Shown: piece after piece, positions 1 through 16,527 of the stretch
How the letters are laid out: every line of letters begins with the position of its first letter
Position numbering within the stretch: the first letter of the stretch is position 1
IMG/VR virus record: IMGVR_UViG_3300027805_000008
Location: 1 to 64,000 of that record
From: a virus
Length of the DNA: 64,000 nucleotides
Strand: one strand, 5' to 3'
Notes under the pieces: generated by a model
What the model saw: only the letters and a program-made list of their open reading frames with translations
The model's database searches: none
What the model was told of the DNA's origin: nothing
Translations under genes and position numbers: made by a program

Positions 1-271
1 CTACAGTTGCGAGAACATCAGTTTCCTGATTGAATGGATTTGTGCGTAACACAAGATGAGCGTCTGAAACATCATTCCAAGATTCTGAAATGTGGTCAGT
101 CAGCGGAGATAAACGAACATTCCAGTTCGCCAACTTTGCTTCTTCAAGCATTGTTTGTGTAGTTACATCCTCATCTTGATTGAAGATTCGGTTTGCGAGA
201 TTGTGCCAAGCGGGTTTGCCACGCAAAGCAAAGGCAACATCGTTGCCATTTGTTTCTAGGTTATGAGCCAT
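1..271 (-). CDS. DUF932-family (phage/plasmid-like, TIGR03299-type) protein, 5' part only; runs off window edge
   Basis: Manual translation MAHNLETNGNDVAFALRGKPAWHNLANRIF..MLEEAKLANWNV; the MAH..PAWH.L N-terminus is typical of DUF932; RBS GAAAGGA upstream. Confidence 0.75.
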   Translation of the reverse strand, partial: MAHNLETNGNDVAFALRGKPAWHNLANRIFNQDEDVTTQTMLEEAKLANWNVRLSPLTDHISESWNDVSDAHLVLRTNPFNQETDVLATV

Positions 272-301
272 AGATTTGTCCTTTCGATTAGTTGAGTTCT
301 G

Positions 302-323
302 ATTATAGCAGGGGGGACTGACA
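302..323 (-). promoter_or_regulatory. PafBC-type (RecA-NDp) promoter TGTCAG-N10-TATAAT
   Basis: Exact motif on minus strand directly upstream of DUF932 gene; one of 13 copies. Confidence 0.85.
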
Positions 324-343
324 TTGTCTAGATTAGTTAGTCA

Positions 344-440
344 TTTGTCCGAATTGTCCAATGTGATCATTCTCACAAATTTTGGGGGATTGTGGATAAC
401 TGTCGTAAGGCTGTGGATAACCCCGCAGCTATTGCGGGCC
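344..440. promoter_or_regulatory. Regulatory module 1: GGACA direct repeat, CRP box (362-377), two DnaA boxes (391-399, 412-420), CCCGCA..TGCGGG hairpin (422-438)
   Basis: TGTGA-tcattc-TCACA; TGTGGATAA x2. Confidence 0.75.
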
Positions 441-480
441 AGCTGGGGAAATGGGGCGGAATAAGATCCGCCCCAAGACT

Positions 481-723
481 TTAGCCAAGCAATTTAGTTA
501 GTTCAGTTTTTGGTGGAAGCGACTCACGATTTATAATTAGAGCAGTTGTCTTTTTCTTTTTTAGATTATCATAAACATACGCTCTGATATTTCCGTCAAA
601 CTTACGCATATTAGAAAATACTAATTCAGTTAGGTATTCTTTATCTACACCTTGCTCTGAATAGATTGTCAAATCATTTGCCTTGTTCTCGTCATAGATT
701 TCAACACGATAACGATTTTTCAT
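481..723 (-). CDS. hypothetical early protein
   Basis: 80 aa ORF with RBS and TATAAT at 751-756. Confidence 0.7.
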   Translation of the reverse strand: MKNRYRVEIYDENKANDLTIYSEQGVDKEYLTELVFSNMRKFDGNIRAYVYDNLKKKKTTALIINRESLPPKTELTKLLG

Positions 724-792
724 TTTGTTCCTTTGTTAGTAGGGATATGAATTATAACATTGGGGGCTAGATTTTGTCTAGCCCCACCTGTA

Positions 793-975
793 TTACTTAC
801 CGATTTTTACCATAGCATAACGCATACCTGCGCCTGTATCTAATCTTAGTTTAGTTAGATTAGGGCGAACGGCGATAATCTCTGCGATTGTGCCTGTGAT
901 ACCGCTTTTGCCTGTGGTGAATACATCGCCTTTGCGATAGAAACGACCCTTAGCAACATCTAGTATTGGAGACAT
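793..975 (-). CDS. small beta-rich (SH3/KOW-like) protein; paralog of 1625-1774
   Basis: Start corrected to MSPILD after RBS GAAAGGA; motif GDVFTTGKSGITGTI. Confidence 0.65.
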   Translation of the reverse strand: MSPILDVAKGRFYRKGDVFTTGKSGITGTIAEIIAVRPNLTKLRLDTGAGMRYAMVKIGK

Positions 976-994
976 TTTATTCCTTTCGTTAGTA

Positions 995-1062
995 GGTGGG
1001 TTTGAGCAGTTTTGCGACTTACTCAGGTCGTTTGGGTTCAGGACTTTAGTTCTGCCCCCCAA
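995..1062 (-). ncRNA. candidate structured leader RNA (hairpin plus H-type pseudoknot)
   Basis: CGAC-cuGAGUAa-GUCG stem whose loop GAGUA can pair with downstream UGCUC. Confidence 0.4.
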
Positions 1063-1067
1063 ATTGC

Positions 1068-1490
1068 TTATAGATAACGAGCAATAGCGTTGTATGTGGA
1101 AGTATTTACAACTTCCTCATCTGTCATTTTGAGGATACGAATTGCGTTCGTGATTTCCTCTTTCATCTCATTGTAAGAGTGAGTATGAATTACCTCAAAA
1201 TCCTTTTCAGGTTCAGCAGGGAAAGTTCCCTCTTTTGTGATAATGTCAAAATCAACATTGAGAGTGTTGTTCCAAGAACGATAGTTTGTGCGAAGGTTCT
1301 CAGCCTTTGAGAAGTTGTCAATAGCCCACTTGCCTACTTCCTTGCGCCACTTTTCCTGAGCCTTCTGAAACTTGGCTTCGTTCTCGCCTTGTGTGGCGTA
1401 GTTCTTTTCTAACTCGGCAAGGCGTGTTTCTAGTGCCTTGATTACTTTAGGTGTAGCGATTTTCACGCTAATAGATTTTCCTCTACTCAT
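1068..1490 (-). CDS. hypothetical coiled-coil early protein
   Basis: 140 aa ORF, RBS, own PafBC-type promoter. Confidence 0.8.
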   Translation of the reverse strand: MSRGKSISVKIATPKVIKALETRLAELEKNYATQGENEAKFQKAQEKWRKEVGKWAIDNFSKAENLRTNYRSWNNTLNVDFDIITKEGTFPAEPEKDFEVIHTHSYNEMKEEITNAIRILKMTDEEVVNTSTYNAIARYL

Positions 1491-1522
1491 TTGTTTTCCC
1501 TTTCGTTTGGTTGGTTGGTTTT

Positions 1523-1544
1523 ATTGTATCAGTTGCTACTGACA
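1523..1544 (-). promoter_or_regulatory. PafBC-type promoter TGTCAG-N10-TACAAT
   Basis: exact motif. Confidence 0.85.
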
Positions 1545-1547
1545 TTT

Positions 1548-1612
1548 CACCCGAAGGTGGAGAGTTCTTACTTACGACATTGGACTAGAACACTCTCTAA
1601 ACTGTCCCTGTT
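1548..1612 (-). ncRNA. candidate structured RNA (stem-loop with possible pseudoknot, followed by cUUCGg hairpin)
   Basis: GAGAGugUUCU/AGAACUCUC stem, GGAC/GUCC loop pairing, CACC-UUCG-GGUG. Confidence 0.4.
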
Positions 1613-1624
1613 TCGTTTAGTTTG

Positions 1625-1774
1625 TTAGACTTCTACTGAAGTCCAACGCTCTGACCCATCTACATCAAGTAGCACTCTCGCCACTCCGCTAGGGTGGTTA
1701 TCTACTGCCTTGATTACTCCGACTACGCCTGACTTAGCAGTTGTAATCGTCTGACCGATTTCTAGTGTTGCCAT
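1625..1774 (-). CDS. 49 aa beta-rich protein (not in ORF track); paralog of 793-975
   Basis: MATLEIGQTITTAKSGVVGVIKAVDNHPSGVARVLLDVDGSERWTSVEV with RBS GAAAGGA. Confidence 0.7.
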   Translation of the reverse strand: MATLEIGQTITTAKSGVVGVIKAVDNHPSGVARVLLDVDGSERWTSVEV

Positions 1775-1799
1775 TTTGTTTCCTTTCGTTTAGGTGATT

Positions 1800-1875
1800 A
1801 TTATAGCGGATACTACTGACATTTAGTATCGCTAATCTCATTATTTGAGAAAGTTAGAGTGTGATACTAATCACA
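1800..1875 (-). promoter_or_regulatory. PafBC-type promoter (1800-1821) plus perfect CRP box (1860-1875)
   Basis: TGTCAG-N10-TATAAT; TGTGA-tactaa-TCACA. Confidence 0.8.
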
Positions 1876-2145
1876 CTCAGGAAGCCACGCATCTAAGTGG
1901 TGAGCCTCGATGATAGCCGATGCTGGTGCGCTTTCCTGCCCACGCCAAGTAATTGGGGCGGGTAGTGTGATAAGTCTTTGATAGTCCTCGTCATAGTATG
2001 CGTCAATAGCATCTATACAAGGTTCGACCATTGATCGTGGAACGGGTGGATAGTGATTACTTGATAAGTGGATACCGATTTGTGTTTCCAAGTCCAAGTC
2101 TAATAAGTCATTATTAGCCAAGTCATAAGCGAGATTACTCCCCAT
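1867..2145 (-). CDS. hypothetical early protein
   Basis: 92 aa ORF, translationally coupled to neighbours. Confidence 0.75.
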   Translation of the reverse strand: MGSNLAYDLANNDLLDLDLETQIGIHLSSNHYPPVPRSMVEPCIDAIDAYYDEDYQRLITLPAPITWRGQESAPASAIIEAHHLDAWLPECD

Positions 2146-2419
2146 TATTATCCTCCTCTAGGATAGTTTCTGATAGGTTGTCCATTTCATCTATTGTAGC
2201 AATAAGGTCTGACATTTCTTGCTCGGTCAATAAGATTTTAGTTACAAGGTCTGCGACTTTGCTTGATAGGGCGGCTGAATACATAAATAAGTATTTAGCA
2301 TAGACTTCATCAGGAAGTTCATTTCTGCGAGTGTGTAGTTCTCCCGCCATTCCCATTATGTCCTCATCAAAGATAGAGTTCTTGGTTGCCTCTAAGATTT
2401 CAACGGCAGTTGATAGCAT
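2135..2419 (-). CDS. hypothetical acidic helical protein
   Basis: 94 aa ORF, TAATG coupling. Confidence 0.75.
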   Translation of the reverse strand: MLSTAVEILEATKNSIFDEDIMGMAGELHTRRNELPDEVYAKYLFMYSAALSSKVADLVTKILLTEQEMSDLIATIDEMDNLSETILEEDNNGE

Positions 2420-2625
2420 TAGTTAGCCACCTTTAGAATTGCGTATGAACCGCCTGCGTTGATTTCGTCAATAGCAGGTTGGATAGCAGGAACGATAAGG
2501 TGTTTTAGCATTCCTTCTAGCATAGCAATTTGGTCATACTTAGTTAGTTGTAGGAAGCGTTGCGCTACTGGATGGGTTTCGTCAAACTCGGTAACGAAGT
2601 TTAGAGAGTGTTCTACTTTTATCAT
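2419..2625 (-). CDS. hypothetical early protein
   Basis: 68 aa ORF with RBS GAAAGG. Confidence 0.7.
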   Translation of the reverse strand: MIKVEHSLNFVTEFDETHPVAQRFLQLTKYDQIAMLEGMLKHLIVPAIQPAIDEINAGGSYAILKVAN

Positions 2626-2654
2626 TTGTTGCCTTTCGTTGTTGGTATGTGAGT

Positions 2655-2786
2655 ATTATAGCCGAAGCCACCGACAATTAGTAGCACCGCCTCGGCGTGT
2701 CGTAGCATTTGTGAGGTTTCTCACATTTTCAGGGTTATCCACAACTAAGCCGTAAGCCTGTGGAAAACCCCGCAGTTCTGCGGGCC
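2655..2786 (-). promoter_or_regulatory. Regulatory module: PafBC-type promoter (2655-2676), GTGTC/WhiA-type motif (2693-2702), CRP box (2710-2725), DnaA boxes (2735-2743, 2759-2767), CCCGCAG..CTGCGGG hairpin
   Basis: TGTCGG-N10-TATAAT; TGTGA-ggtttc-TCACA; TTATCCACA. Confidence 0.8.
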
Positions 2787-2797
2787 TAAGCCTGGAG

Positions 2798-2914
2798 CTA
2801 TTCGCTCCAGATCTCAGGGTCCACTTCTGCTAAATATTCTTTAGCAGCTTTCTTTTCTTCGTCGTTACCAACCACGGAATTTATTAATGCATTAAAGTAC
2901 TTTAGCTCCGCCAT
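2798..2914 (-). CDS. 38 aa hypothetical protein (not in ORF track)
   Basis: MAELKYFNALINSVVGNDEEKKAAKEYLAEVDPEIWSE with RBS AAGGAG. Confidence 0.6.
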   Translation of the reverse strand: MAELKYFNALINSVVGNDEEKKAAKEYLAEVDPEIWSE

Positions 2915-2927
2915 TTTTATTTCTCCT

Positions 2928-3647
2928 TTATTTTTTAGTTGCGCTAAATCTAATATCCGCTTTACCATAAACACACAATCCGCATGACACGCATGCAGAA
3001 CCGTTAGTTGAAATTAGCGGAATGCTTTTATTATTTTCAGGACACTTAGCGCCAGGCTTACCAGTTAATTCTTTCATGATACTTTCAGTCACGGCGAATG
3101 TCTTACCAAGGTAGGCCAAGCGGATACCTTGATTAAGTTTTAAATCGTGAGCAGTGTCTTTATTCTCATCATCCGTTGAATAGTAAAGAGATAGATTAGA
3201 GATATCCTTAAGAATAAGCGCTGCAGACTTTACACGTGTGTAAACCCAAAACTGCACGTCGGTGTTATTATCGATAACGGTCTTCCACGCATATGCGTAG
3301 GTATCGTTAAAGAAATCGCCGTCCCAGTGTATACGGAAGAGCATTTTAGCATTGCGCTTAACACAATCAGCCTTAAACTCTGCAATCATATCTTCAATTA
3401 GGTTAACCATTACGTGCTCATCCGCATTGCGTAGTAATTCCCAATTGTGTAAGAGAACGGCTCTTACTCCCTTGTATACCTTTTCGAGTTTTCCTGCATA
3501 GCATACGCTTTCACAAATACTAGTGGCACCAGGGCACGAGAAAGCCTTACCAGCGGGCAATCCAAAAGTGTTGGCAATTGTTGGGGTTTTTCCATTAGGG
3601 GAGACGGCATTAGCAACCTTTCGATCATTTGAACGTTTTAATTTCAT
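2928..3647 (-). CDS. GP88-family (radical-SAM-like, Cys-cluster) phage protein
   Basis: SCPGAT.IC..VCYA, RIHWDGDFF, FWVYTR, C..CGLC motifs; start moved to MKLKRS (leaderless after promoter 3655-3676). Confidence 0.75.
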   Translation of the reverse strand: MKLKRSNDRKVANAVSPNGKTPTIANTFGLPAGKAFSCPGATSICESVCYAGKLEKVYKGVRAVLLHNWELLRNADEHVMVNLIEDMIAEFKADCVKRNAKMLFRIHWDGDFFNDTYAYAWKTVIDNNTDVQFWVYTRVKSAALILKDISNLSLYYSTDDENKDTAHDLKLNQGIRLAYLGKTFAVTESIMKELTGKPGAKCPENNKSIPLISTNGSACVSCGLCVYGKADIRFSATKK

Positions 3648-3654
3648 GGGGGTA

Positions 3655-3676
3655 ATTGTAGCAGTATGGTCCGACA
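3655..3676 (-). promoter_or_regulatory. PafBC-type promoter TGTCGG-N10-TACAAT (leaderless transcript)
   Basis: exact motif, ATG 7 nt after the -10 hexamer. Confidence 0.85.
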
Positions 3677-3678
3677 TT

Positions 3679-3888
3679 TTAGTAATCCTCATCCATACCA
3701 AAGCCAGCAGAAGCAAGGGCATCAGAATCAGCCCAACCAGTTAGTTCATAGAATTCCATTTCTTCGGAATCGTAGCATTCACCACACATATAGTCATCGC
3801 CATAAATCTCATATTCTTCTTCAGAATAGAAAGTCTCAGTAGCACCACAAATTTCATGGTTCAAGCAAGCAACAATAAAAGTATTCAT
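3679..3888 (-). CDS. very acidic Cys-containing small protein
   Basis: MNTFIVAC..CGEC..DALASAGFGMDEDY; TAATG-coupled start. Confidence 0.7.
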   Translation of the reverse strand: MNTFIVACLNHEICGATETFYSEEEYEIYGDDYMCGECYDSEEMEFYELTGWADSDALASAGFGMDEDY

Positions 3889-3980
3889 TAGTAGCACTCC
3901 CCGCACATTGGATAGTAGTATTCGCCGTCATCGGTTATAAATTGGGTGGTATCTTGACCACATGAAGAACATTTGTTCAT
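3888..3980 (-). CDS. 30 aa CxxC..CxxC micro zinc-ribbon (not in ORF track)
   Basis: MNKCSSCGQDTTQFITDDGEYYYPMCGECY with RBS GAAAGG. Confidence 0.6.
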   Translation of the reverse strand: MNKCSSCGQDTTQFITDDGEYYYPMCGECY

Positions 3981-4009
3981 GAGTTGACCTTTCGTTTGTA
4001 GATATTGGA

Positions 4010-4140
4010 ATTATAGCAGGTTAGACTGACATTTTCCACGCCACGCCCAAAAATCTAGGGTGTTTTAGATCACACCCGTAACGACACGCCCGACTCCGCA
4101 GCTCTGCGGGCATCCCGCCTGTTTGTCAAGCGGGACACCT
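4010..4140 (-). promoter_or_regulatory. Regulatory module: PafBC-type promoter (4010-4031), CRP-like box (4059-4074), CGACACGCCC (4082-4091), CCGCAG..CTGCGG hairpin
   Basis: TGTCAG-N10-TATAAT; GGTGT-tttaga-TCACA. Confidence 0.75.
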
Positions 4141-4145
4141 TTTGT

Positions 4146-4382
4146 TTATTTAGAAATTGCTTTTTGTCTGCGAATTTCTTTTTGCAAATTCTTTAATTGC
4201 TTTTCTAAAACTAAAGTTCTAGCAGATGAGTATTTATAAATTCCCGCTTTCTTTGCTTCTGCTACATAGTAGCGGTCATACTCCAACTCGTGCTTTGCAA
4301 TTAGTTTGCGAATTGCATTGTTGCGAACAGTGCTCATAACTGTTTGATAGTTTTTAGTTCCTGATTTAATTGGCTTAGCCAT
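4146..4382 (-). CDS. basic hypothetical protein
   Basis: 78 aa Lys/Arg-rich ORF with RBS. Confidence 0.7.
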   Translation of the reverse strand: MAKPIKSGTKNYQTVMSTVRNNAIRKLIAKHELEYDRYYVAEAKKAGIYKYSSARTLVLEKQLKNLQKEIRRQKAISK

Positions 4383-4385
4383 TTC

Positions 4386-4520
4386 TTATTCCCTTTCGTT
4401 TTTATTTTTGTGTTTTAGTTTGCGTGTGTATTTCTTTTTATTGCGAACAGGTTGCGCCGCATTACTACGACGCAATTCCTGAATGCGTTTTACCTTATCT
4501 CGAAGTGAAGTTTGGAACAT
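4386..4520 (-). CDS. 44 aa highly basic protein with ArfA-like KKxYxRKxKH motif (not in ORF track)
   Basis: MFQTSLRDKVKRIQELRRSNAAQPVRNKKKYTRKLKHKNKNERE. Confidence 0.6.
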   Translation of the reverse strand: MFQTSLRDKVKRIQELRRSNAAQPVRNKKKYTRKLKHKNKNERE

Positions 4521-4686
4521 TGTATCCACTCGCTTCGTGAAATCGCTTTACATCAAATCTAGGATTATCTTTCGCAAACATTTCTGCAAAATCATTTACC
4601 ATTTTAGAAAATAAAGCGGGGTGAGTTTTATTGCTCGCATACTTTAGAATTTCTGCGGTTGCTATGTAATCTTTGCGTGTCATCAT
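4495..4686 (-). CDS. MTRKDY-type small phage protein; paralog of 7470-7640
   Basis: MMTRKDY..A.IL...DFA.MFA.DN..F. Confidence 0.75.
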   Translation of the reverse strand: MMTRKDYIATAEILKYASNKTHPALFSKMVNDFAEMFAKDNPRFDVKRFHEASGYNVPNFTSR

Positions 4687-4889
4687 TTTACAACGACCTT
4701 TCTGCCTTCACGATAAAATACTTTCGTGTAGCATTTTCCGCTAGGTGTATAAAGATTTACAGTTGAGTATTCGTTAGCAAATCCCCAATCGGTGAATAGA
4801 AAAAAGTTTTCCCAAGCCCCGTATTCGTTTTCGTATTCAGCAGACCAATGCGGAGCATTAGAGTCATAAGCGCAAGTTAGTTTATACAT
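4683..4889 (-). CDS. hypothetical early protein
   Basis: 68 aa ORF, RBS. Confidence 0.7.
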   Translation of the reverse strand: MYKLTCAYDSNAPHWSAEYENEYGAWENFFLFTDWGFANEYSTVNLYTPSGKCYTKVFYREGRKVVVK

Positions 4890-4936
4890 TTAGGTTTTCC
4901 CTTTCGTTAGTTGAGCATAAGCATTTATTTATAGTT

Positions 4937-4958
4937 ATTGTATCACCTACCACCGACA
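4937..4958 (-). promoter_or_regulatory. PafBC-type promoter TGTCGG-N10-TACAAT
   Basis: exact motif. Confidence 0.8.
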
Positions 4959-5001
4959 AGGTGGCAAGTGTTGAGCAATTGTCGCAGATAAAGATTTCCA
5001 T

Positions 5002-5148
5002 TTATTTATTCTCCTGAAAAAATCCAAGAGGATTACATTGACAAGCCTCTACATCAAACATTTCTTCGTTGCCGTAGTATAGCCAGCCTTTGCCGTAGCA
5101 GGTATCACACTCTAAAATCTGAGTGTATAATTCTTTCATTCTTCCCAT
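5002..5148 (-). CDS. 48 aa CxxC..CxC zinc-binding protein (not in ORF track)
   Basis: MGRMKELYTQILECDTCYGKGWLYYGNEEMFDVEACQCNPLGFFQENK with RBS. Confidence 0.65.
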   Translation of the reverse strand: MGRMKELYTQILECDTCYGKGWLYYGNEEMFDVEACQCNPLGFFQENK

Positions 5149-5180
5149 TTTAGTTTTCCTTTCGTGTTTTGATAAATCAG

Positions 5181-5202
5181 ATTATAGCACCGACTACCGA
5201 CA
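5181..5202 (-). promoter_or_regulatory. PafBC-type promoter TGTCGG-N10-TATAAT
   Basis: exact motif. Confidence 0.85.
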
Positions 5203-5203
5203 T

Positions 5204-5347
5204 TTATTCGGCTTCGGGGGTGTGGAATAAGGCTCCCTCATTTAGCAAGCCTAATTCAATGTTGAACATTTCATCGGGGGTGGCTTCGGATAAATCTACC
5301 CAGCCAGCGCCGTTTTCATTCATTCTAAAAATTTCAATGTATCCCAT
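5204..5347 (-). CDS. 47 aa acidic protein (not in ORF track)
   Basis: MGYIEIFRMNENGAGWVDLSEATPDEMFNIELGLLNEGALFHTPEAE. Confidence 0.6.
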   Translation of the reverse strand: MGYIEIFRMNENGAGWVDLSEATPDEMFNIELGLLNEGALFHTPEAE

Positions 5348-5349
5348 TA

Positions 5350-5556
5350 TTATTCACCTACCTTTACTGCGATTGTTGCGAATTTATTTCGCAGACCGCC
5401 AGTTCTAATTTCGATTAGATAGGCTTCAGTATTTTCGCCATACCAAATTTCTGGGCGAGGTTCTGCTGAAACAATTTCGCCCTGAAAGTGGCGATTAGTT
5501 GAGCGATAGTTTTTCCCTACAAGTAGGCTTTCGATTGTGTATAGTTTGGTAGCCAT
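5350..5556 (-). CDS. small beta-barrel-like protein; paralog of 6561-6776
   Basis: YTIESLLVGKNY..AE.R...EAY.I..R...ATIAV. Confidence 0.7.
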   Translation of the reverse strand: MATKLYTIESLLVGKNYRSTNRHFQGEIVSAEPRPEIWYGENTEAYLIEIRTGGLRNKFATIAVKVGE

Positions 5557-5591
5557 TGGCAGACCTTCTTTCGTTTGTTGTTATGTATGGA

Positions 5592-5806
5592 ATTATACAC
5601 GAACGGACTGACATTTTCACATTACTAGCCAGTAAATCCAAATAGTGAGACGCTCAAGCCGTGTGATACTAATCACATAAAAATGTCCGATTTGTCTGTC
5701 AAGCCGACACGCCGCAGAATTCAGGGATTTTTATAACGAGTTCATAACGACACGCCCGACCCCGTGCCTTTGCGGGCCAGCTTGATTTTGTCAAGCCGAC
5801 ACGCCG
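5592..5806 (-). promoter_or_regulatory. Regulatory module: PafBC-type promoter (5592-5613), CRP box (5662-5677), GACA repeat, three GACACGCC motifs, ATAACGA direct repeat, CCCG..CGGG hairpin
   Basis: TGTCAG-N10-TATAAT; TGTGA-tactaa-TCACA; GACAC at 5706, 5749, 5798. Confidence 0.8.
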
Positions 5807-5813
5807 TTAGTTA

Positions 5814-6005
5814 TTAAATATTTTCATTTTCTTTTATTGCATCTTCAAAATCTAACAGTGATTGGTGATACGCAACTGGATCACATTCTCGCAAAATTTG
5901 AGACGGATAAAATTTTAAGTAACCAATTTCAACAACTGGATAAGCCTCGTCTAACATTTCGTCAAACATTGTTTTAATTTCAAAAGCAGTTTCAAAATCT
6001 AACAT
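5814..6005 (-). CDS. acidic small phage protein
   Basis: FDEMLDEAYP....ILRECDPVAY. Confidence 0.7.
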   Translation of the reverse strand: MLDFETAFEIKTMFDEMLDEAYPVVEIGYLKFYPSQILRECDPVAYHQSLLDFEDAIKENENI

Positions 6006-6109
6006 TATTTATTTTCCTTTGAGTTAGTAGCGGATAGAATTGCGAGAGCCTCTTTTTTAGAAGCCTCTCGTTGCGCTATAACAAGCGCCTTATATTCATC
6101 AAGTTTCAT
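5999..6109 (-). CDS. 36 aa helical peptide; paralog of 6776-6880 (not in ORF track)
   Basis: MKLDEYKALVIAQREASKKEALAILSAT.. Confidence 0.65.
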
Positions 6110-6310
6110 TTATTTAACCTCCAAACAATTTACGCAAAAGCATTTTGGGCTTTCGCTAATTAAGATTTTTAACAACGCTTTGCGTTGCCAAATGCTAAGA
6201 CCATAGGTGCTTTTAGCACCGCCATTATTCCAATCGTGCAAGATACGATTTTCTAACGCACCAGATATTCCTAGTGCTAATCCGATATTTGTTTTTTCTA
6301 GTGTAGTCAT
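6110..6310 (-). CDS. small Cys-containing protein; paralog of 6880-7035
   Basis: NRILHDWNNGG..RKALLK..CxCxxC; start corrected to MTTLEK. Confidence 0.7.
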   Translation of the reverse strand: MTTLEKTNIGLALGISGALENRILHDWNNGGAKSTYGLSIWQRKALLKILISESPKCFCVNCLEVK

Positions 6311-6344
6311 TTGAGACCACCTTTCTTTATTTTCTAATACTAGT

Positions 6345-6557
6345 ATTCTAGCAGGGGGGTCTGACATTTACTGACCAGTAATCGGTCAAATCGGACATTT
6401 TGAAATGTGTTTAGTATCACATCATTTTTTTACGCTCAAATTCCTGGGGTGTTTAATATCACATCATAAGCGACACGCCCGAGCCCGCAAAAGACTGCGG
6501 GCCGATCTGAGCAAAGTCAAGCCGACACGCCGTTGTGTCGGTATGATTTACATCACA
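6345..6557 (-). promoter_or_regulatory. Regulatory module: PafBC-type promoter (6345-6366), GGACA motif, three CRP-like boxes (6406-6421, 6448-6463, 6542-6557), GACAC motifs, CCCGCA..TGCGGG hairpin (6484-6501)
   Basis: TGTCAG-N10-TAGAAT; N5-N6-TCACA boxes. Confidence 0.75.
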
Positions 6558-6560
6558 ATT

Positions 6561-6776
6561 TCAGTAATCTGAAATTCTAACGGCAACCGTAGCCCACTCA
6601 TCTCTGAGTGATCCCGTTGGGCGATAACGAATAGCAAAAGCCTCATAGCCCTCTGGTGGATAAACATCTTCACGCTTTTCTGCGTGGTTGATAATTCCAC
6701 CATTGAAACGGCGGCGTAGCGAAGTAGGCTTGTAGTATTGGTCTACAAGTAAATCAACGATTGAATAACCTCTCAT
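6561..6776 (-). CDS. small beta-barrel-like protein; paralog of 5350-5556
   Basis: YSIVDLLVDQYY..AEKRE..EAFAIRYR..ATVAV. Confidence 0.7.
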   Translation of the reverse strand: MRGYSIVDLLVDQYYKPTSLRRRFNGGIINHAEKREDVYPPEGYEAFAIRYRPTGSLRDEWATVAVRISDY

Positions 6777-6880
6777 TATTCACTCTCCTTTTTGATAGTA
6801 GCGGATAGGATTTCAAGCGCCTCTTTTTTAGACGCTTCACGTTGTTCAATAACGTGTTTTTTGAATTCTTCTAAATTCAT
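6776..6880 (-). CDS. 34 aa helical peptide; paralog of 5999-6109 (not in ORF track)
   Basis: MNLEEFKKHVIEQREASKKEALEILSATIKKESE, TAATG-coupled at both ends. Confidence 0.7.
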   Translation of the reverse strand: MNLEEFKKHVIEQREASKKEALEILSATIKKESE

Positions 6881-7035
6881 TATTTAGCACACTCGCAATC
6901 TTTATGAGTAGGGATAGAAAATAAATACTTTAGCAAAGCCTTACGCTCTGATAAAGAAATTTCGGGGTGAAAGTTTTTCACTCCACCGTGTTGATAATCA
7001 AACACAATTTTATTGAAAGTTTTTTCGGATAACAT
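6880..7035 (-). CDS. small protein; paralog of 6110-6310
   Basis: NKIVFDYQHGG..RKALLK..DCEC. Confidence 0.65.
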   Translation of the reverse strand: MLSEKTFNKIVFDYQHGGVKNFHPEISLSERKALLKYLFSIPTHKDCECAK

Positions 7036-7037
7036 TA

Positions 7038-7220
7038 TTACATCACCCAACTTTCTTGAGTGTATGATAACCACTCACCAAGAGTCATCAAACCCTTGTA
7101 TTCATTACATTTTCCGCAAAAGATTTCATTTGCGTAGTCTGAGCAAAAAGCGCAGACGATTAGATTTGCCTCATCGGCACTTACATTTGAGAGAGTAATC
7201 TCTCTGATTAGTGTAGTCAT
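7038..7220 (-). CDS. CxxC..CxxC zinc-ribbon small protein
   Basis: CAFC..CGKC; RBS GAAAGGTGG. Confidence 0.7.
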   Translation of the reverse strand: MTTLIREITLSNVSADEANLIVCAFCSDYANEIFCGKCNEYKGLMTLGEWLSYTQESWVM

Positions 7221-7269
7221 TATTGACCACCTTTCTTGAAATAACCTTTATTTCATCTTGATACCTAGT

Positions 7270-7460
7270 ATCCTACCACCTACCACTGACATTTTGACCC
7301 CTTTTTCGGGCGTGTCGGAAAACTATTTTTGTGATTTAGGTCATGTGGATAACTTACGCTCAAATTCCAGGGGTTTTCCACACCTGTGAATAAAGCTGTG
7401 GATAACGCCCGCAAAAGACTGCGGGCCGAATAATTATGCATTTTCGTGAATAATTATTCG
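7270..7460 (-). promoter_or_regulatory. Regulatory module: PafBC-type promoter (7270-7291), GTGTC, CRP-like box (7330-7345), four DnaA boxes (7344, 7374, 7385, 7397), hairpin (7408-7425), tandem ARG-box-like operator (7427-7460)
   Basis: TGTCAG-N10-TAGGAT; TGTGGATAA x2, TTTTCCACA, TGTGAATAA; CGAATAATTATGCA / TGAATAATTATTCG at 20-bp period. Confidence 0.8.
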
Positions 7461-7469
7461 CCTTTTATT

Positions 7470-7640
7470 TTATTTATTACACGCCTCTAAAAATTTATCT
7501 GCGTTAAATTGCGAATTATCTTCCGCAAACATTGACGCAAAATCATCAACTAGATCGTGATAAGTAAACTCATCACCGATTAAATCTTTATAACTAGAAA
7601 GAATATCGGCGGTCTTTACATAGTCTTTTCGTGTCATCAT
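7470..7640 (-). CDS. MTRKDY-type small protein; paralog of 4495-4686 (not in ORF track)
   Basis: MMTRKDYVKTADILSSY..LVDDFASMFAEDNSQFNADKFLEAC. Confidence 0.75.
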   Translation of the reverse strand: MMTRKDYVKTADILSSYKDLIGDEFTYHDLVDDFASMFAEDNSQFNADKFLEACNK

Positions 7641-7641
7641 T

Positions 7642-7752
7642 TTAATTTAACCCATTTTCTTTTATGTCTTTTATTACGGCGATTAGTAGCGGGATAGTTA
7701 CCCCCGCTAATAGTAATTGAACGGCGGTAGTTAGTAAGCGATTAGTAGTCAT
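7642..7752 (-). CDS. 36 aa single-TM membrane peptide (not in ORF track)
   Basis: MTTNRLLTTAVQLLLAGVTIPLLIAVIKDIKENGLN, TAATG-coupled. Confidence 0.6.
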   Translation of the reverse strand: MTTNRLLTTAVQLLLAGVTIPLLIAVIKDIKENGLN

Positions 7753-7889
7753 TAGTTATTCTTCTTCCATTTATAAATCTTGTAAGCAATTAGCGCAATA
7801 GTAGCGGGTATAATTACTTGCCAAGATAAAGCGATATAGCAGACATAGGTATCAAACTCTAAGCCGTAGTCATTTAGTTCTAGTGTCAT
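7752..7889 (-). CDS. 45 aa single-TM membrane peptide (not in ORF track)
   Basis: ..YIALSWQVIIPATIALIAYKIYKWKKNN. Confidence 0.6.
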   Translation of the reverse strand: MTLELNDYGLEFDTYVCYIALSWQVIIPATIALIAYKIYKWKKNN

Positions 7890-8072
7890 TTATTTTATTC
7901 CTAACATAGTAGCGACATTATCTAATTCTTCATCTGTAAGATGGTCTAACTCAATAGCCTTAGAGAAACCGAAGAAATCTTCTTCATCTTCTTGTTCTAC
8001 TTCATCTACATCATCTAAGTGGCGATAAGCATCTGCTACATCTGCCTGAATAGTATCCCATTTAGTCATCAT
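7890..8072 (-). CDS. very acidic small protein
   Basis: 60 aa, D/E-rich (DDVDEVEQEDEED). Confidence 0.7.
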   Translation of the reverse strand: MMTKWDTIQADVADAYRHLDDVDEVEQEDEEDFFGFSKAIELDHLTDEELDNVATMLGIK

Positions 8073-8224
8073 TACTTTACCTCTACTCCTCTTACATTGT
8101 AGGTAAATCCCTTACCTAGTTTATTTAGTTCTTCCATTACTTTTAGTAGTTCATCTGCGCTAGTAGCCTTGTTATCTACTGATAGTAGGTTAGCGCCTTG
8201 CCATAGTGAGTATGTTATTGTCAT
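8072..8224 (-). CDS. 50 aa hypothetical protein (not in ORF track)
   Basis: MTITYSLWQGANLLSVDNKATSADELLKVMEELNKLGKGFTYNVRGVEVK. Confidence 0.65.
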   Translation of the reverse strand: MTITYSLWQGANLLSVDNKATSADELLKVMEELNKLGKGFTYNVRGVEVK

Positions 8225-8263
8225 TTTATTTTCTATTCTTTCTGTTAGTAGTTATTAGTTAGT

Positions 8264-8314
8264 GGGTCTTATTCGCTAGGCTCACCTTTCGGATTATTTG
8301 CTAGGCTCATACCC
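8264..8314 (-). repeat. Twofold-symmetric leader element: TGAGCCTAGCRAATAA x2 around a CC-GAAA-GG hairpin, closed by GGGT/ACCC
   Basis: directly visible. Confidence 0.7.
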
Positions 8315-8332
8315 TTATTTAGTTATGGTGTA

Positions 8333-8398
8333 ACCTTATCATAGGTTACTGACATTTAGGGGGATTTAGCCCCTAGTGTCGGTGTGAGTTACCTCACA
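8333..8398 (-). promoter_or_regulatory. PafBC-type promoter (8333-8354), GTGTC, perfect CRP box (8383-8398)
   Basis: TGTCAG-N10-TAAGGT; TGTGA-gttacc-TCACA. Confidence 0.8.
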
Positions 8399-8541
8399 TT
8401 TACTAGGGCGTGTGTAGCGTAGTTACCGCCACACATTACGCATAGTGTCCAAGCGGTTACTCTACCGCAACCATTAGAACACGCCACATAGTGGCTAGGT
8501 GTATGGTAGTCGTTACGACTTTCCCAAATACGATTAGTCAT
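8389..8541 (-). CDS. small zinc-binding protein
   Basis: MTNRIWESR..CSNGC..CVMC; start corrected. Confidence 0.6.
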   Translation of the reverse strand: MTNRIWESRNDYHTPSHYVACSNGCGRVTAWTLCVMCGGNYATHALVNVR

Positions 8542-8542
8542 A

Positions 8543-8752
8543 TTAGTTAGCCTTTCTATTAGATAGAACCCAAGCGGACTCATTAGGTGATAGATACTTA
8601 TGTGAGATTAGGTTCTCACTAGCAACCATATAGACATATGCCATACGGCTTATGTAGTTGCCATTAGATAGGCGAAAGATATTTTTATCCTTAGTGTTAC
8701 TAGAGGACATAGGGTGAGTAGGTTCTACTACTACTGATACTGAGTGAGTCAT
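8543..8752 (-). CDS. hypothetical protein; first gene of leftward early region
   Basis: 69 aa, RBS GAAAGGAG. Confidence 0.7.
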   Translation of the reverse strand: MTHSVSVVVEPTHPMSSSNTKDKNIFRLSNGNYISRMAYVYMVASENLISHKYLSPNESAWVLSNRKAN

Positions 8753-8801
8753 TTTGACTCCTTTCTTGTTACTAACCTTTAGTAACTTTCTTTATATATA
8801 A

Positions 8802-8930
8802 AGCGTAACACGGGGCACTGACATTTTCAAGCACCAACACTAGACAAATCGGACATTTTGAAAAAAAAGTTGGTGATTAGCGTCACAATTAGCCTAATAT
8901 GGGCGCACTATATAGACAAAACGGACATTT
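8802..8930 (-). promoter_or_regulatory. PafBC-type promoter (8802-8823), GACAAAWCGGACA x2 (8843-8855, 8915-8927), CRP-like box (8872-8887)
   Basis: TGTCAG-N10-TACGCT; GGTGA-ttagcg-TCACA. Confidence 0.75.
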
Positions 8931-9080: not shown

Positions 9081-9155
9081 GGGGATATAGCTTAATCTGG
9101 TTAAAGCATTTGTCTTATATACAAACGACTCTGGGTTCAAATCCCAGTATCCCTA
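9081..9155 (+). tRNA. tRNA-Ile (anticodon UAU)
   Basis: Cloverleaf GGGGATA/TATCCCT, anticodon arm TTTGT-CTTATAT-ACAAA, T arm CTGGG-TTCAAAT-CCCAG. Confidence 0.85.
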
Positions 9156-9409
9156 CTACATAAAAATATTTTTAAAACTCTTGACCTAGCAAATTTTATA
9201 ATGTTATACTTAAGACTGGTTTGTGGGGGCTTACACTGAAACTCATAATGACGGAAATGTGTAGCTTCTCTATCCTACAAAATTGATTTTAAATTTTGGG
9301 GGGTAGGGGGGCTTTCCTAAAATCTAAAAATCTGGAAATGTAATTAAAAGAAATATATATCATATATATCTTAGTTGACTAGAATATAGATAGAGTATAC
9401 AATAAAACA

Positions 9410-10113: not shown

Positions 10114-10186
10114 TGGACCATAGCTCAGTTGGCAGAGCGTAGAGCTGTTAACTCTAATGTCCCAGGTTCGAGCCCTGGTGGTCCAG
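10114..10186 (+). tRNA. tRNA-Asn (GUU)
   Basis: TGGACCA/TGGTCCA acceptor, TAGAG-CTGTTAA-CTCTA anticodon arm, GTTCGAG T loop. Confidence 0.9.
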
Positions 10187-10190
10187 CAAA

Positions 10191-10263
10191 CTCTTCGTAG
10201 CTCAGAGGACAGAGCATTCGGTTTCTACCCGACTGGTCGCAGGTTCGACTCCTGCCGAAGAGA
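10191..10263 (+). tRNA. tRNA-Arg (UCU)
   Basis: CTCTTCG/CGAAGAG acceptor, TCGG-TTTCTAC-CCGA, GCAGG-TTCGACT-CCTGC. Confidence 0.85.
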
Positions 10264-10268
10264 CTATA

Positions 10269-14592: not shown

Positions 14593-16527
14593 ATGTCAAA
14601 AACTATTGCAAACCCATACGAAAACTTTATTGCTCTGTCTCGCTATGCTAGATGGATTCCAGAAGAAGGCCGACGTGAGACATGGGGAGAGACAGTAGAT
14701 AGATATTTTTCTTTCATGATTGATCACCTAAAAGAAAACTATAATTATATTCCAACTGAAAAGCTTGTTGCGGAATTAAAAGAGGCTGTATTCAATAGGA
14801 ATGTTATGCCATCAATGCGAGCAGTAATGACTTCTGGAGCAGCATTAGATAGAGATCACGTAGCTGGATATAACTGTTCATTTGTTCCAGTAGATAACCC
14901 TCGTTCATTTGATGAGACAATGTATATTCTTATGTGTGGAACAGGTGTTGGCTTCTCTGTTGAATATAAATATGTTAACAAGCTTCCTGCCGTCCCAGAG
15001 TCACTAGAAAAGTCAGATACAGTAATTGTTGTAGAAGATTCAAAGCAGGGATGGGCAAAGGCTTATCGTGAACTCTTGGCTTTGCTATGGACAGGACATA
15101 TTCCAGCAATCGATGTATCTAAAGTTCGTCCAGCAGGAGCAAGACTTAAAACAATGGGTGGACGTTCATCTGGACCGCAACCACTTGTTAATCTTTTTGA
15201 TTTTACAATTGCAAAGTTTAAGAATGCAGTAGGTCGTCAACTAAAGCCTATTGAGGCACACGACATTATGTGTAAGATTGGTGAAGTGGTAGTTGTCGGC
15301 GGAGTAAGACGTTCTGCCATGATTTCTCTTTCTAATATTAACGATATTGAAATGGCAGCAGCCAAGTCTGGTAACTGGTGGGAAAATAATACCCAACGTG
15401 CACTTTCAAATAATTCAGTGGCATATTCTCGTAAGCCACAAATGGAGCAGTTTATTGCAGAATGGAAGAATCTGTATGATTCAAAATCGGGAGAACGAGG
15501 TATATACAACGTGGCCGCAGCTCAAGCCCAAGCAGCCAAGTATGGAAGAAGAGATCCAGATATACACTATGGAACTAACCCTTGTTCAGAGATTATTCTA
15601 CGTCCTTACCAGTTTTGTAACCTTTCAGAAGTCGTACTACGTGAAAATGATACAAAGAAAGATATTGAACGTAAAGTAGAACTTGCTACAATTCTTGGAA
15701 CATGGCAGTCCACTCTAACAGATTTTAAATATCTTCGTAAAATTTGGAAAGACAACACAGAAGAAGAGCGTCTGCTTGGGGTGTCTTTGACTGGACAATT
15801 TGGACACAAGTTTATGTCAGGTAAAGAAGATCTTGTTTCACTAGAAGCTTTTTTAATGACTCTTAGAGAATCAGCAAGAGCAAAGAATAAAGATGAGGCT
15901 GGGAAAATTGGGATTCCAGAGTCTGCCGCTATTACATGCGTAAAGCCATCTGGAACAGTATCTCAATTGGTCGGGGTGTCTTCAGGAATGCATGCTTGGC
16001 ATTCTCCATATTATATTCGTACAGTACGTGGCTCAAAAGGAGATCCAATTTCTACATTTTTGAAAGAAGTTGGAATTCCCGTAGAAGATGATGTAATGAA
16101 GCCAAACGATACATATGTATTCTCATTTCCAGTTAAAGCACCAGAAGGTGCAATTGTTAGAAATGATTTAACCGCTATTGAGCATCTAAATATTTGGTTG
16201 GTTTATCAACGTGCATGGTGTGAGCATAAACCATCTATTACAGTTTCTGTAAAAGAAGATGAGTGGATGGAAGTTGGGGCCTGGGTATATAAGCATTTTG
16301 ATGAGGTGTCTGGAATTTCATTCCTTCCTCATTCAGATCACTCATATAAGCAGGCGCCGTATCAAGAAGTCACAAAAGAAGAATACGAGGCGCTCCTTGC
16401 AAAAATGCCAAATGATATTCGCTGGGAAGACTTATCTTTTTATGAAACAGAAGATGGAACTTCAACAAATGCCACTCTAGCCTGTACTTCAGACGGAAAT
16501 TGCGAGATTGTAGACATTTCCGCTTAA
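14593..16527 (+). CDS. nrdJ: class II (adenosylcobalamin-dependent) ribonucleotide reductase
   Basis: YNCS, TNPCSEI, CNLSEV, TCVKPSGT, C-terminal CxxxxC; no adjacent R2 subunit gene. Confidence 0.9.
   Translation: MSKTIANPYENFIALSRYARWIPEEGRRETWGETVDRYFSFMIDHLKENYNYIPTEKLVAELKEAVFNRNVMPSMRAVMTSGAALDRDHVAGYNCSFVPVDNPRSFDETMYILMCGTGVGFSVEYKYVNKLPAVPESLEKSDTVIVVEDSKQGWAKAYRELLALLWTGHIPAIDVSKVRPAGARLKTMGGRSSGPQPLVNLFDFTIAKFKNAVGRQLKPIEAHDIMCKIGEVVVVGGVRRSAMISLSNINDIEMAAAKSGNWWENNTQRALSNNSVAYSRKPQMEQFIAEWKNLYDSKSGERGIYNVAAAQAQAAKYGRRDPDIHYGTNPCSEIILRPYQFCNLSEVVLRENDTKKDIERKVELATILGTWQSTLTDFKYLRKIWKDNTEEERLLGVSLTGQFGHKFMSGKEDLVSLEAFLMTLRESARAKNKDEAGKIGIPESAAITCVKPSGTVSQLVGVSSGMHAWHSPYYIRTVRGSKGDPISTFLKEVGIPVEDDVMKPNDTYVFSFPVKAPEGAIVRNDLTAIEHLNIWLVYQRAWCEHKPSITVSVKEDEWMEVGAWVYKHFDEVSGISFLPHSDHSYKQAPYQEVTKEEYEALLAKMPNDIRWEDLSFYETEDGTSTNATLACTSDGNCEIVDISA

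Follow-up and report, generated by a model that had tools for sequence, protein, structure and literature searches.

What decides when the small genes of a lake phage are transcribed, if each short operon is preceded by its own patchwork of sites that resemble those of bacterial global regulators? The question is raised by IMG/VR record IMGVR_UViG_3300027805_000008, a contig of 91,329 bases that is 84% complete and comes from an uncultured actinophage with a GC content of 38% and a full genome size of about 105-115 kb. We analysed its first 64,000 nt (the window). Between positions 1 and 8760 all genes are on the minus strand, as about 35 small open reading frames (ORFs) in short operons, and this block probably holds early genes. 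The original prediction described nine modules in the block, built from the same host-regulator-like parts in a roughly conserved order and in varying combinations, with matches to the sites of PafBC, CRP/GlxR, DnaA, WhiA and ArgR; the modules were proposed to give each operon its own inputs or to act as decoys. We lean, if only slightly, towards the view that promoter-terminator cassettes give each small operon its own host inputs and together form a kind of switchboard. Motif identity, enrichment, strand bias, positions, conservation and the presence of cognate factors in candidate hosts were read directly from the sequences, and from these we infer the binders, the sign of regulation, its timing and the host.

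Relatives were used throughout for comparison. More than 598 GP88-family relatives are found in IMG/VR at 77-92% identity, in related contigs from lakes. Conservation was measured in 80 fetched related lake-phage loci (1.25 Mb), with reversed sequence as the control.

The promoter and its upstream elements

The part common to the array is a promoter motif, TGTCRG-N10-TAnnnT, which has 14 matches between 302 and 8823, all on the minus strand. In 100 dinucleotide shuffles of the 64-kb window, the expected number is 1.13 and the largest is 4. The remaining 82 kb of the genome has no match at the exact N10 spacing, and two loose matches with N11 spacing on the plus strand. Nine of the promoters, as had been predicted, have upstream elements, and five are bare (Table 1). 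The consensus of 832 unique phage promoters is aaAATGTCAGTgg..tcTGnTAtAAT, and these 832 have no -35 consensus at the -35 place. Sigma-70-type promoters with canonical -35/-10 elements are no more frequent in the region than expected (28 compared to 28.4). Circularity was avoided by a check with an independent anchor, ACGAAAGG plus a start codon: a full promoter lies within 90 nt of 436 of the 490 unique leaders, and the top 6-mers near leaders in an unbiased count (TGTCAG, GTCAGT, TGTCGG and CGGTGG) are about 10-fold enriched. The leader itself, (A/C)GAAAGG and often AACGAAAGG, stands 3-14 nt before the start codon of nearly every gene that follows a promoter (18 sites, window 269-8766). GAAAGG would pair with the extreme 3' end (CCUUUC) of 16S rRNA, and an extra AAC is also conserved.

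The motif recognized by the PafBC activator in vivo is tGTCgg(N10)tA(N3)T, with the upstream part at -23 to -28 and no -35 (PMC8635444). PafBC inserts between sigma region 4 and the DNA, a mode of activation termed "sigma adaptation" (PMC8635444). It is activated by single-stranded DNA (ssDNA), probably of local origin, and it joins only RNA polymerase (RNAP) already sitting at a cognate promoter (PMC11804915). The geometry of the phage promoters is identical to the published motif, and an attribution to PafBC fits their sequence. Muntaha and Starbow, two Streptomyces phages of cluster BE, have 1 and 0 promoter matches; the promoter type thus belongs to the uncultured lineage, and cultured Streptomyces BE relatives were rejected as a model for the array on the same counts. 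Gene 481-723 has a different promoter (751-792, minus strand), composed of TAGACA, 18 nt and TGtTATAAT, without TGTCRG, and located in or just after the hairpin GGGGCTAG..CTAGCCCC. Thus, not every unit of the block uses the PafBC-type promoter.

The second element is a CRP-type palindrome. All five perfect copies of TGTGA-N6-TCACA in the genome are within 362-8398, and all eight boxes with at most one mismatch (2.3 expected) are in 362-8887. In 359 unique sites the TGTGA/TCACA core is invariant, the spacer has a weak T..A preference and the flanks are free, a profile that fits the GlxR consensus TGTGANNTANNTCACA (PMC4254451). A box with at most one mismatch is found at 434 of the 832 promoters, with peaks at -54.5, -64.5, -74.5 and -84.5. 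Because relatives share ancestry, phasing was tested with one modal position per downstream gene family (26 families). The Rayleigh R at 10.5 bp is 0.56 (p about 3e-4; 0.0006 by simulation), and R is 0.10-0.27 at control periods. Where a family has alternative box positions, they differ by 10-bp steps. Such placement is the geometry predicted for an activator, and a CRP-type protein fits as its reader.

DnaA boxes are found in three modules. Five of the six perfect TTATCCACA boxes of the genome lie in 391-7405, along with three near-perfect ones. In relatives, neighbouring boxes that share an orientation have a spacing of 21 bp (46 cases), inverted neighbours one of 23-24 bp (26 cases), and the second box of module 1 is forward in some relatives and inverted in others, with the consensus kept. 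This pattern fits recognition by DnaA.

Closer to the promoter, 74 of the 168 occurrences of GACAC are at -51/-52 and 66 of the 208 of GTGTC are at -41/-40, two sharp peaks for which control pentamers have no counterpart. All eight genome copies of GGCGTGTCG lie within 2694-7317. The binding site of WhiA is an asymmetric GACAC, located on either strand upstream of the -35, and WhiB connects WhiA to sigma region 4 (PMC10243135). An attribution to WhiA is plausible, and the WhiA match of the original prediction stands in part: the sharp positions of GACAC are those expected from the way WhiA sites behave (PMC10243135), but what is conserved is a 9-mer, longer than the pentamer, and candidate hosts show no enrichment of this 9-mer.

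The proposed match to ArgR is not supported. ARG boxes are AT-rich palindromes of ~18 bp, usually in tandem pairs, and CCCTGRAATTT is not palindromic; it abuts the CRP box in some modules and showed no link to arg genes in candidate hosts. The variant CCCTGGAATTT is above the reversed control in candidate hosts, but its matches are equal on both strands, scattered and apparently coding. One such match near argR lies just upstream of the match to the ArgR C-terminal domain, probably within the argR coding sequence. A pair of ARG-like AT-rich palindromes (GAATAATTATTC-like, about 20 bp apart) at 7428-7459 was also considered and rejected, as it is not conserved (9 loose hits in 8 loci). CCCTGRAATTT and AATGTCCGATTTG, found at about -57 and -130, are putative elements without an assigned reader.

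Hairpins of the form CCCGCA-loop-TGCGGG complete the modules. All four in the genome are in the region, with two imperfect copies, and six modules combine a hairpin with a promoter. The stems are GC-rich (-10 to -17 kcal/mol), covary in relatives and are not followed by a U-tract, which is why a generic terminator scan misses these GCCCGCA hairpins. They probably terminate or stabilise the preceding transcript; one contig piece from a freshwater metatranscriptome runs through the hairpin at 2769-2784.

The predicted order of parts holds. Moving upstream from the promoter, there is GACAC/GTGTC (-51/-41) or a TGTCCG repeat (near -57), then the CRP-type box (-54 to -96), CCCTGRAATTT, DnaA boxes or GGCGTGTCG, and the hairpin (-100 to -190). 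All parts recur in the 80 related loci. The promoter has 1141 matches on the gene strand and 9 on the other, compared to 11 and 7 in the control. Counts in relatives and control are 396 and 0 for the CRP-type palindrome, 294 and 4 for the DnaA box, 85 and 0 for the hairpin, and 503 and 4 for GGCGTGTCG. De novo 8-mer enrichment upstream of promoters returned the same motif families. Two orthologous modules were footprinted, by alignment of module 4 and across 45 variants of module 1, with sequences at a median identity of 66%. The conserved blocks are the hairpin, the DnaA boxes, the CRP core, CAATTCGGACA and the promoter, and in a subset of the relatives whole elements are swapped for others.

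The combination of elements is tied to the gene family downstream. In relatives, each of the six elements varies less within families than in any of 500 label shuffles; the within-family variance is under half of the shuffled mean for CRP, DnaA and GCGTGTC, and nearly so for TGTCCG. For example, the family of gene 1068-1490 (n=66) always has a bare promoter, and the bare promoter at 2193-2214 is kept ahead of the same gene family in 16 relatives. The gene family of module 2 has a CRP box in 74% of cases and that of module 8 in 95%. In the module 3 family the frequencies are 1.00 for CRP, 1.00 for GCGTGTC and 0.69 for DnaA, and in the DUF932-like family they are 0.87 for CRP, 0.89 for DnaA and 0.67 for the hairpin. 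Thus, the differing combinations noticed in the one genome are kept, each with its downstream gene family, in relatives.

Candidate hosts and their regulators

A non-actinobacterial host, guessed from the 38% GC, was rejected: the phage has a whiB gene (E 1.4e-12) and a Streptomyces-phage-like portal (58-61% identity to those of cluster BE Streptomyces phages), and there are freshwater actinobacteria of low GC. WhiB is a marker of actinophages. We also rejected the use of bins of metagenome-assembled genomes (MAGs) to name a host, in view of mis-binning or contamination of public species-representative genomes by an abundant lake phage. The MAG labels of such bins (loci L085-L105) include a cyanobacterium, Bacteroidia, Chitinophagales, Phycisphaerae, Planctomycetes, Polynucleobacter, Methylococcus and others. 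One Actinomycetota MAG led to an order of freshwater actinobacteria with genomes of 1.2-1.5 Mb, a size that fits the Nanopelagicales. These actinobacteria are candidates only. Sites were counted in five complete genomes of this order (G012, G023, G027, G035 and G042; 1.2-1.5 Mb).

PafB, PafC, CRP, DnaA, WhiA and ArgR are all encoded by the candidate hosts. In each of the five, a tandem gene pair matches the solved PafB (E 1e-32 to 4e-37) and PafC (E 4e-29). Among 31 recA loci of the order, 25 have TGTCAGTGG..CCTGCTAnnnT at a conserved place, and the bases shared with the phage promoters extend beyond the core, to TGTCAGTGG and CCTGCTA. The PafBC match is thereby supported twice, by a geometry that is exactly the published one (PMC8635444) and by resemblance to the recA promoters of candidate hosts. 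In G023 (C1:913932-913971), the PafBC-type promoter of recA has CGACACGCC 10 nt upstream of TGTC, about 8 bp nearer the promoter than in the phage modules.

Each candidate host has one CRP, with the recognition helix RETVNK, GASRETVNKALADF, which we take to be the same as in CRP of Mycobacterium tuberculosis and in GlxR. For CRP/GlxR the original prediction is supported by the fit to the consensus (PMC4254451) and the helical phasing to promoters. The DnaA match is supported by the candidate hosts. In all five, dnaA lies at about 1-1410 and TTATCCACA is found near 1470-1650. Pairs of TTATCCACA also occur at high coordinates, near the stated chromosome sizes (exact lengths are lacking), and would lie upstream of dnaA, so that TTATCCACA would flank the gene.

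A proposed mechanism and competing explanations

Under the reading that we favour, composite terminator-operator-promoter cassettes would cut the block into short operons. Each cassette would end in a hybrid promoter, with TGTCRG at -28 to -23, an extended -10 (TGnTAnnnT) and no -35, an architecture that the actinobacterial housekeeping RNAP would read only when an ssDNA-activated PafBC heterodimer inserts, by sigma adaptation. ssDNA on or near the phage DNA, produced by end resection, replication or recombination, would activate host PafBC, and all of the promoters would fire; the extended -10 might add a basal level. A CRP/GlxR-type dimer bound on the same helical face at about -64, -74, -85 or -96 would bring class-I-like activation and a cAMP/carbon signal, and pairs or triplets of DnaA boxes at -85 to -140 would bring a replication-initiator signal. 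The asymmetric GACAC at -51 or -41 might be read by host WhiA together with WhiB, which is phage-encoded, and the GC-rich stem-loop would close the preceding operon.

Several observations weigh against this proposal. The need of PafBC for ssDNA is awkward for genes that fire first, and the extended -10 alone might drive transcription. None of the five candidate-host genomes has a perfect TGTGA-N6-TCACA, although chance alone should give about one in each, and their near-consensus CRP boxes do not exceed the control. The hosts would thus have a degenerate CRP regulon, or else the boxes of the phage have some other reader. GGCGTGTCG likewise shows no enrichment in these genomes. An input through GACAC, WhiA and WhiB may be sterically impossible on a PafBC-type promoter, as WhiB and PafC both use sigma region 4, and a reading by WhiA is further weakened by the length of the conserved 9-mer, which also forms direct repeats around hairpins. 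About 35 small ORFs in the block match no Pfam family, the record is only 84% complete, and any of these ORFs could encode a DNA-binding reader. The candidate hosts are themselves open to doubt: the lake MAGs into which contigs of the phage family are binned span many phyla, and actinobacterial lineages are not told apart by promoter similarity (locus L107). Conservation and family-specific wiring are partly inherited by descent. Lastly, 47% of the sampled words occur in a freshwater metatranscriptome, as do eight near-identical contig pieces, but such contigs show neither starts nor strand and could come from DNA carry-over.

The alternative that survives best, though we consider it unlikely, is that the phage encodes its own readers. 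One or more of the -26 element, the TGTGA palindrome, the TGTCCG repeat and GGCGTGTCG would then be operators of small phage proteins, such as a MotA/AsiA-like activator or a dimer resembling Cro or a repressor, and the likeness to host sites would be partial mimicry or coincidence. The small ORFs without a Pfam family and the missing part of the record leave room for such proteins, the lack of enrichment of GGCGTGTCG and near-consensus CRP boxes in candidate hosts would be expected, and the Streptomyces relatives without this promoter type point to a lineage-specific invention. However, at least one promoter has to be active before phage proteins have been made, and all block operons share one type. 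The match to host recA promoters beyond the core also counts against this reading, as does a CRP box with a classical profile and free flanks for which host CRP has the matching recognition helix. Furthermore, no WYL, sigma-70 region 2 or HTH_Crp protein was found in six frames of the 84%-complete phage record.

A more ambitious version of the favoured reading is quite doubtful. A virulent phage without a transcription factor of its own for the block would compute on four host signals, namely ssDNA through PafBC, cAMP through CRP, the status of DnaA, and the division programme through WhiA and phage WhiB, with one logic gate per operon. As the genome multiplies, the array would become a sink that strips regulators from a streamlined host chromosome with very few strong sites.

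The DnaA-box modules (391-420, 2735-2767 and 7344-7405) could instead be replication origins or origin-activating sites, at which host DnaA opens the DNA for the phage helicase and primase. The phage encodes a DnaB-like helicase and a primase and no recognisable initiator; arrays of boxes spaced by 21 bp lie next to promoters, and there is an AT-rich stretch beside module 7. We regard this function as improbable. The three modules are within 7 kb, each is tied to a promoter and to one gene family, and no iterons or clear unwinding element are common to them. Some relatives have a different element in place of the boxes, which would be surprising if the boxes formed an essential origin.

Very unlikely, in our view, is a decoy or sink as the main function of the array, the second option of the original prediction. 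As the genome multiplies, the array would titrate host PafBC, CRP, DnaA and others, host regulons would collapse and replication initiation would be blocked. The numbers would permit this. Perfect CRP boxes number 5 in 8.6 kb and 0 in each of the five candidate-host genomes, perfect DnaA boxes 5 compared to 4-16 per host genome, and PafBC-type promoters 14 compared to 10-18 matches per host genome, chance hits included, so that, with phage copies in the tens per cell, the sites on phage DNA would exceed those of the host in number. But the sites are locked to promoters, with the CRP box phased, GACAC at -51/-41 and the DnaA boxes in a fixed window; the combinations are kept by gene family and five promoters are bare. 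Decoys need neither phasing nor gene-specific sets, and we therefore prefer regulation over decoy. In addition, titration of PafBC in isolation is unlikely because PafBC joins only promoter-bound RNAP (PMC11804915). Titration is numerically possible and at best a by-product.

The cassettes are probably also recombination joints, since the same cassettes flank unrelated genes. The first gene behind one and the same cassette differs among relatives, and at one locus cassette variants have replaced each other. Public contigs have joints between two promoters (6369 to 1548) and between two hairpin modules (5778 to 6516), in metagenomic contigs with short sides, and many related contigs end inside the region. 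That the cassettes are recombination units only, ordinary promoter-terminator pairs that shuffle genes by homologous recombination like the PeSLs of T4 and whose extra motifs have no regulatory meaning, is the least credible explanation: recombination needs homology only and leaves unexplained the 10-bp phasing of the CRP box, the flip of the DnaA box, four matches to host consensus sequences and the family-kept difference between bare and complex promoters, and it is in any case compatible with the favoured reading rather than exclusive of it.

Related systems and the layout of the block

Two kinds of element that are already known, host-factor-dependent phage promoters and PeSL-like cassettes, come closest to the array, which is a variant of both. 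PafBC (RecA-NDp) promoters of Mycobacterium and other Actinobacteria (PMC8635444, PMC11804915) have the same bipartite motif with a strict GTC core and no -35, and the candidate hosts use this type at recA. In contrast to these, the phage version is repeated 14 times in 8.6 kb, is mostly TGTCAG with an A-rich upstream and an extended -10, and is combined with CRP-type, DnaA and GACAC sites; its dependence on PafBC is putative. The PeSL cassettes of T4-type phages (PMC2839356, PMC4122927) likewise combine a terminator and a promoter in a small unit that recurs among the small accessory genes of a plastic region, where the same cassette flanks unrelated genes and marks the joints of indels and replacements. 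However, the early promoters in PeSLs are plain sigma-70 ones, unaccompanied by sets of global-regulator sites, whereas the cassettes described here are longer (up to about 215 bp), modular, and of a composition specific to the gene family.

Class I CRP promoters, such as those of E. coli CAP, and GlxR sites (PMC4254451) have the same 16-bp palindrome upstream of the core with helical-turn spacing. In the phage the partner promoter is PafBC-type and not a -35 promoter, and the candidate hosts lack a perfect site. The centres of the phage boxes (about -64, -74 and -85) are about 3 bp off the class I positions of E. coli. Promoters controlled by WhiA and WhiB in Streptomyces (PMC10243135, PMC3781837) have an asymmetric GACAC upstream, on either strand, and a WhiB available, which here is phage-encoded. 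The phage unit differs in being a longer 9-mer, CGACACGCC, that is also repeated around terminator hairpins, and the phage core is without the -35/sigma-4 geometry of the solved complex. Short oriented motifs repeated many times along one direction of transcription are known from other actinophages too, as stoperators in mycobacteriophage L5 and as start-associated sequences in phages of cluster K. Arrays of these kinds either serve a phage repressor or occur at translation starts, and they consist of single motifs, not of multi-part modules that match host regulators.

A literature search found no paper linking PafBC/RecA-NDp promoters, or arrays of CRP and DnaA sites, with phages. If the promoters are PafBC-dependent, they would be the first phage use of sigma adaptation as far as the literature searched shows, a mechanism so far described only in the actinobacterial DNA-damage response, and would constitute a natural and highly repeated set of PafBC promoters in graded contexts. 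This lineage is abundant in lakes. Its hosts are probably streamlined planktonic actinobacteria, which are difficult to grow, and the phage DNA is one of few windows on the regulatory code of such hosts (the DnaA box, the CRP box and the PafBC motif). The array could also serve as a test bed for how inputs of the CRP, DnaA and WhiA types combine with a promoter that lacks a -35, and as a promoter toolbox for synthetic biology in low-GC actinobacteria. With it, the notion behind PeSLs, that regulatory cassettes double as recombination joints, reaches beyond T4-type phages.

Table 1. Coordinates (window) of the nine modules and five bare promoters, with the elements of each
Feature	Extent	Strand	Promoter	Other elements and context
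Module 1	302-445	-	302-323	upstream of DUF932-like gene (2-271); CGGACA repeats about 333-356; perfect CRP-type box 362-377; CCCCCAAAATTT 377-388; perfect DnaA boxes 391-399 and 412-420, 21 bp apart; hairpin 422-438
Bare promoter	1523-1544	-	1523-1544	for gene 1068-1490; small UUCG-loop hairpin just upstream, 1545-1562
Module 2	1800-1875	-	1800-1821	perfect CRP-type box 1860-1875, centred at -74.5
Bare promoter	2193-2214	-	2193-2214	in 3' end of ORF 2135-2419; precedes gene 1867-2145
Module 3	2655-2784	-	2655-2676	CGACACGCC 2694-2702 (GACAC about -51); perfect CRP-type box 2710-2725 (-69.5); inverted DnaA box 2735-2743; TTTTCCACA 2759-2767; hairpin 2769-2784
Bare promoter	3655-3676	-	3655-3676	at start of GP88-family gene
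Module 4	4010-4140	-	4010-4031	GGCGTGGCG 4039-4047; CCCTAGATTTT 4050-4060; CRP-like box, 2 mismatches, 4059-4074; GGCGTGTCG 4082-4090; hairpins 4096-4110 and 4113-4135
Bare promoter	4937-4958	-	4937-4958	TGTCGGTGG...TACAAT; gene family without upstream elements
Bare promoter	5181-5202	-	5181-5202	gene family with almost no upstream elements
Module 5	5592-5810	-	5592-5613	perfect CRP-type box 5662-5677 (-84.5); inverted TGTCCG repeat 5682-5694; GGCGTGTCG at 5705-5713, 5748-5756 and 5797-5805; CCCTGAATTC about 5718-5727; double hairpin about 5760-5800
Module 6	6345-6557	-	6345-6366	TGTCCG repeat 6387-6399; CCCAGGAATTT 6438-6448; CRP-like boxes 6406-6421 (1 mismatch), 6448-6463 (2) and 6542-6557 (1); GGCGTGTCG 6471-6479 and 6523-6531; hairpin 6484-6501
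Module 7	7270-7425	-	7270-7291	CGACACGCC 7309-7317 (GACAC about -51); DnaA boxes, perfect 7344-7352 and 7397-7405, one mismatch 7374-7382 and 7385-7393; CCCTGGAATTT 7362-7372; hairpin 7408-7425
Module 8	8333-8398	-	8333-8354	GACAC 8376-8380; perfect CRP-type box 8383-8398 (-64.5)
Module 9	8802-8929	-	8802-8823	first in transcription direction; TGTCCG repeats 8845-8857 and 8917-8929; CRP-like box 8872-8887 (1 mismatch, -84.5)

The GP88-family gene (Pfam E 3.8e-53) starts very close to its promoter. Its ATG (MKLKRS..., window 3640-3680) is 7 nt past the -10, relatives start the protein at the same methionine, and the mRNA may be leaderless. Leaderless mRNAs are common in actinobacteria.

Some small genes in separate operons look paralogous (5350-5556 and 6561-6776; 4495-4686 and 7470-7640), among them the genes of two MMTRKDY... 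proteins. A joint of 5379 to 6662 in public contigs points to recombination between paralogous gene copies. Near-complete related contigs were looked at for a physical genome end, and the position of the region varies among them. Megablast of the region against isolated phages gave no match, and an Rfam search returned tRNA only.

Three tRNA genes on the plus strand lie just beyond the block, Ile-TAT (9081-9156), Asn-GTT (10114-10187) and Arg-TCT (10191-10264), and canonical -35/-10-like promoters are found near them at 9181-9210 and 9375-9403. Elsewhere, the phage encodes RecA, a class II-like ribonucleotide reductase (window 14593-16527) and a PstS-like phosphate-binding protein (PBP_like_2, E 1e-19; genome 74551-75222), the last two being auxiliary genes typical of aquatic phages.

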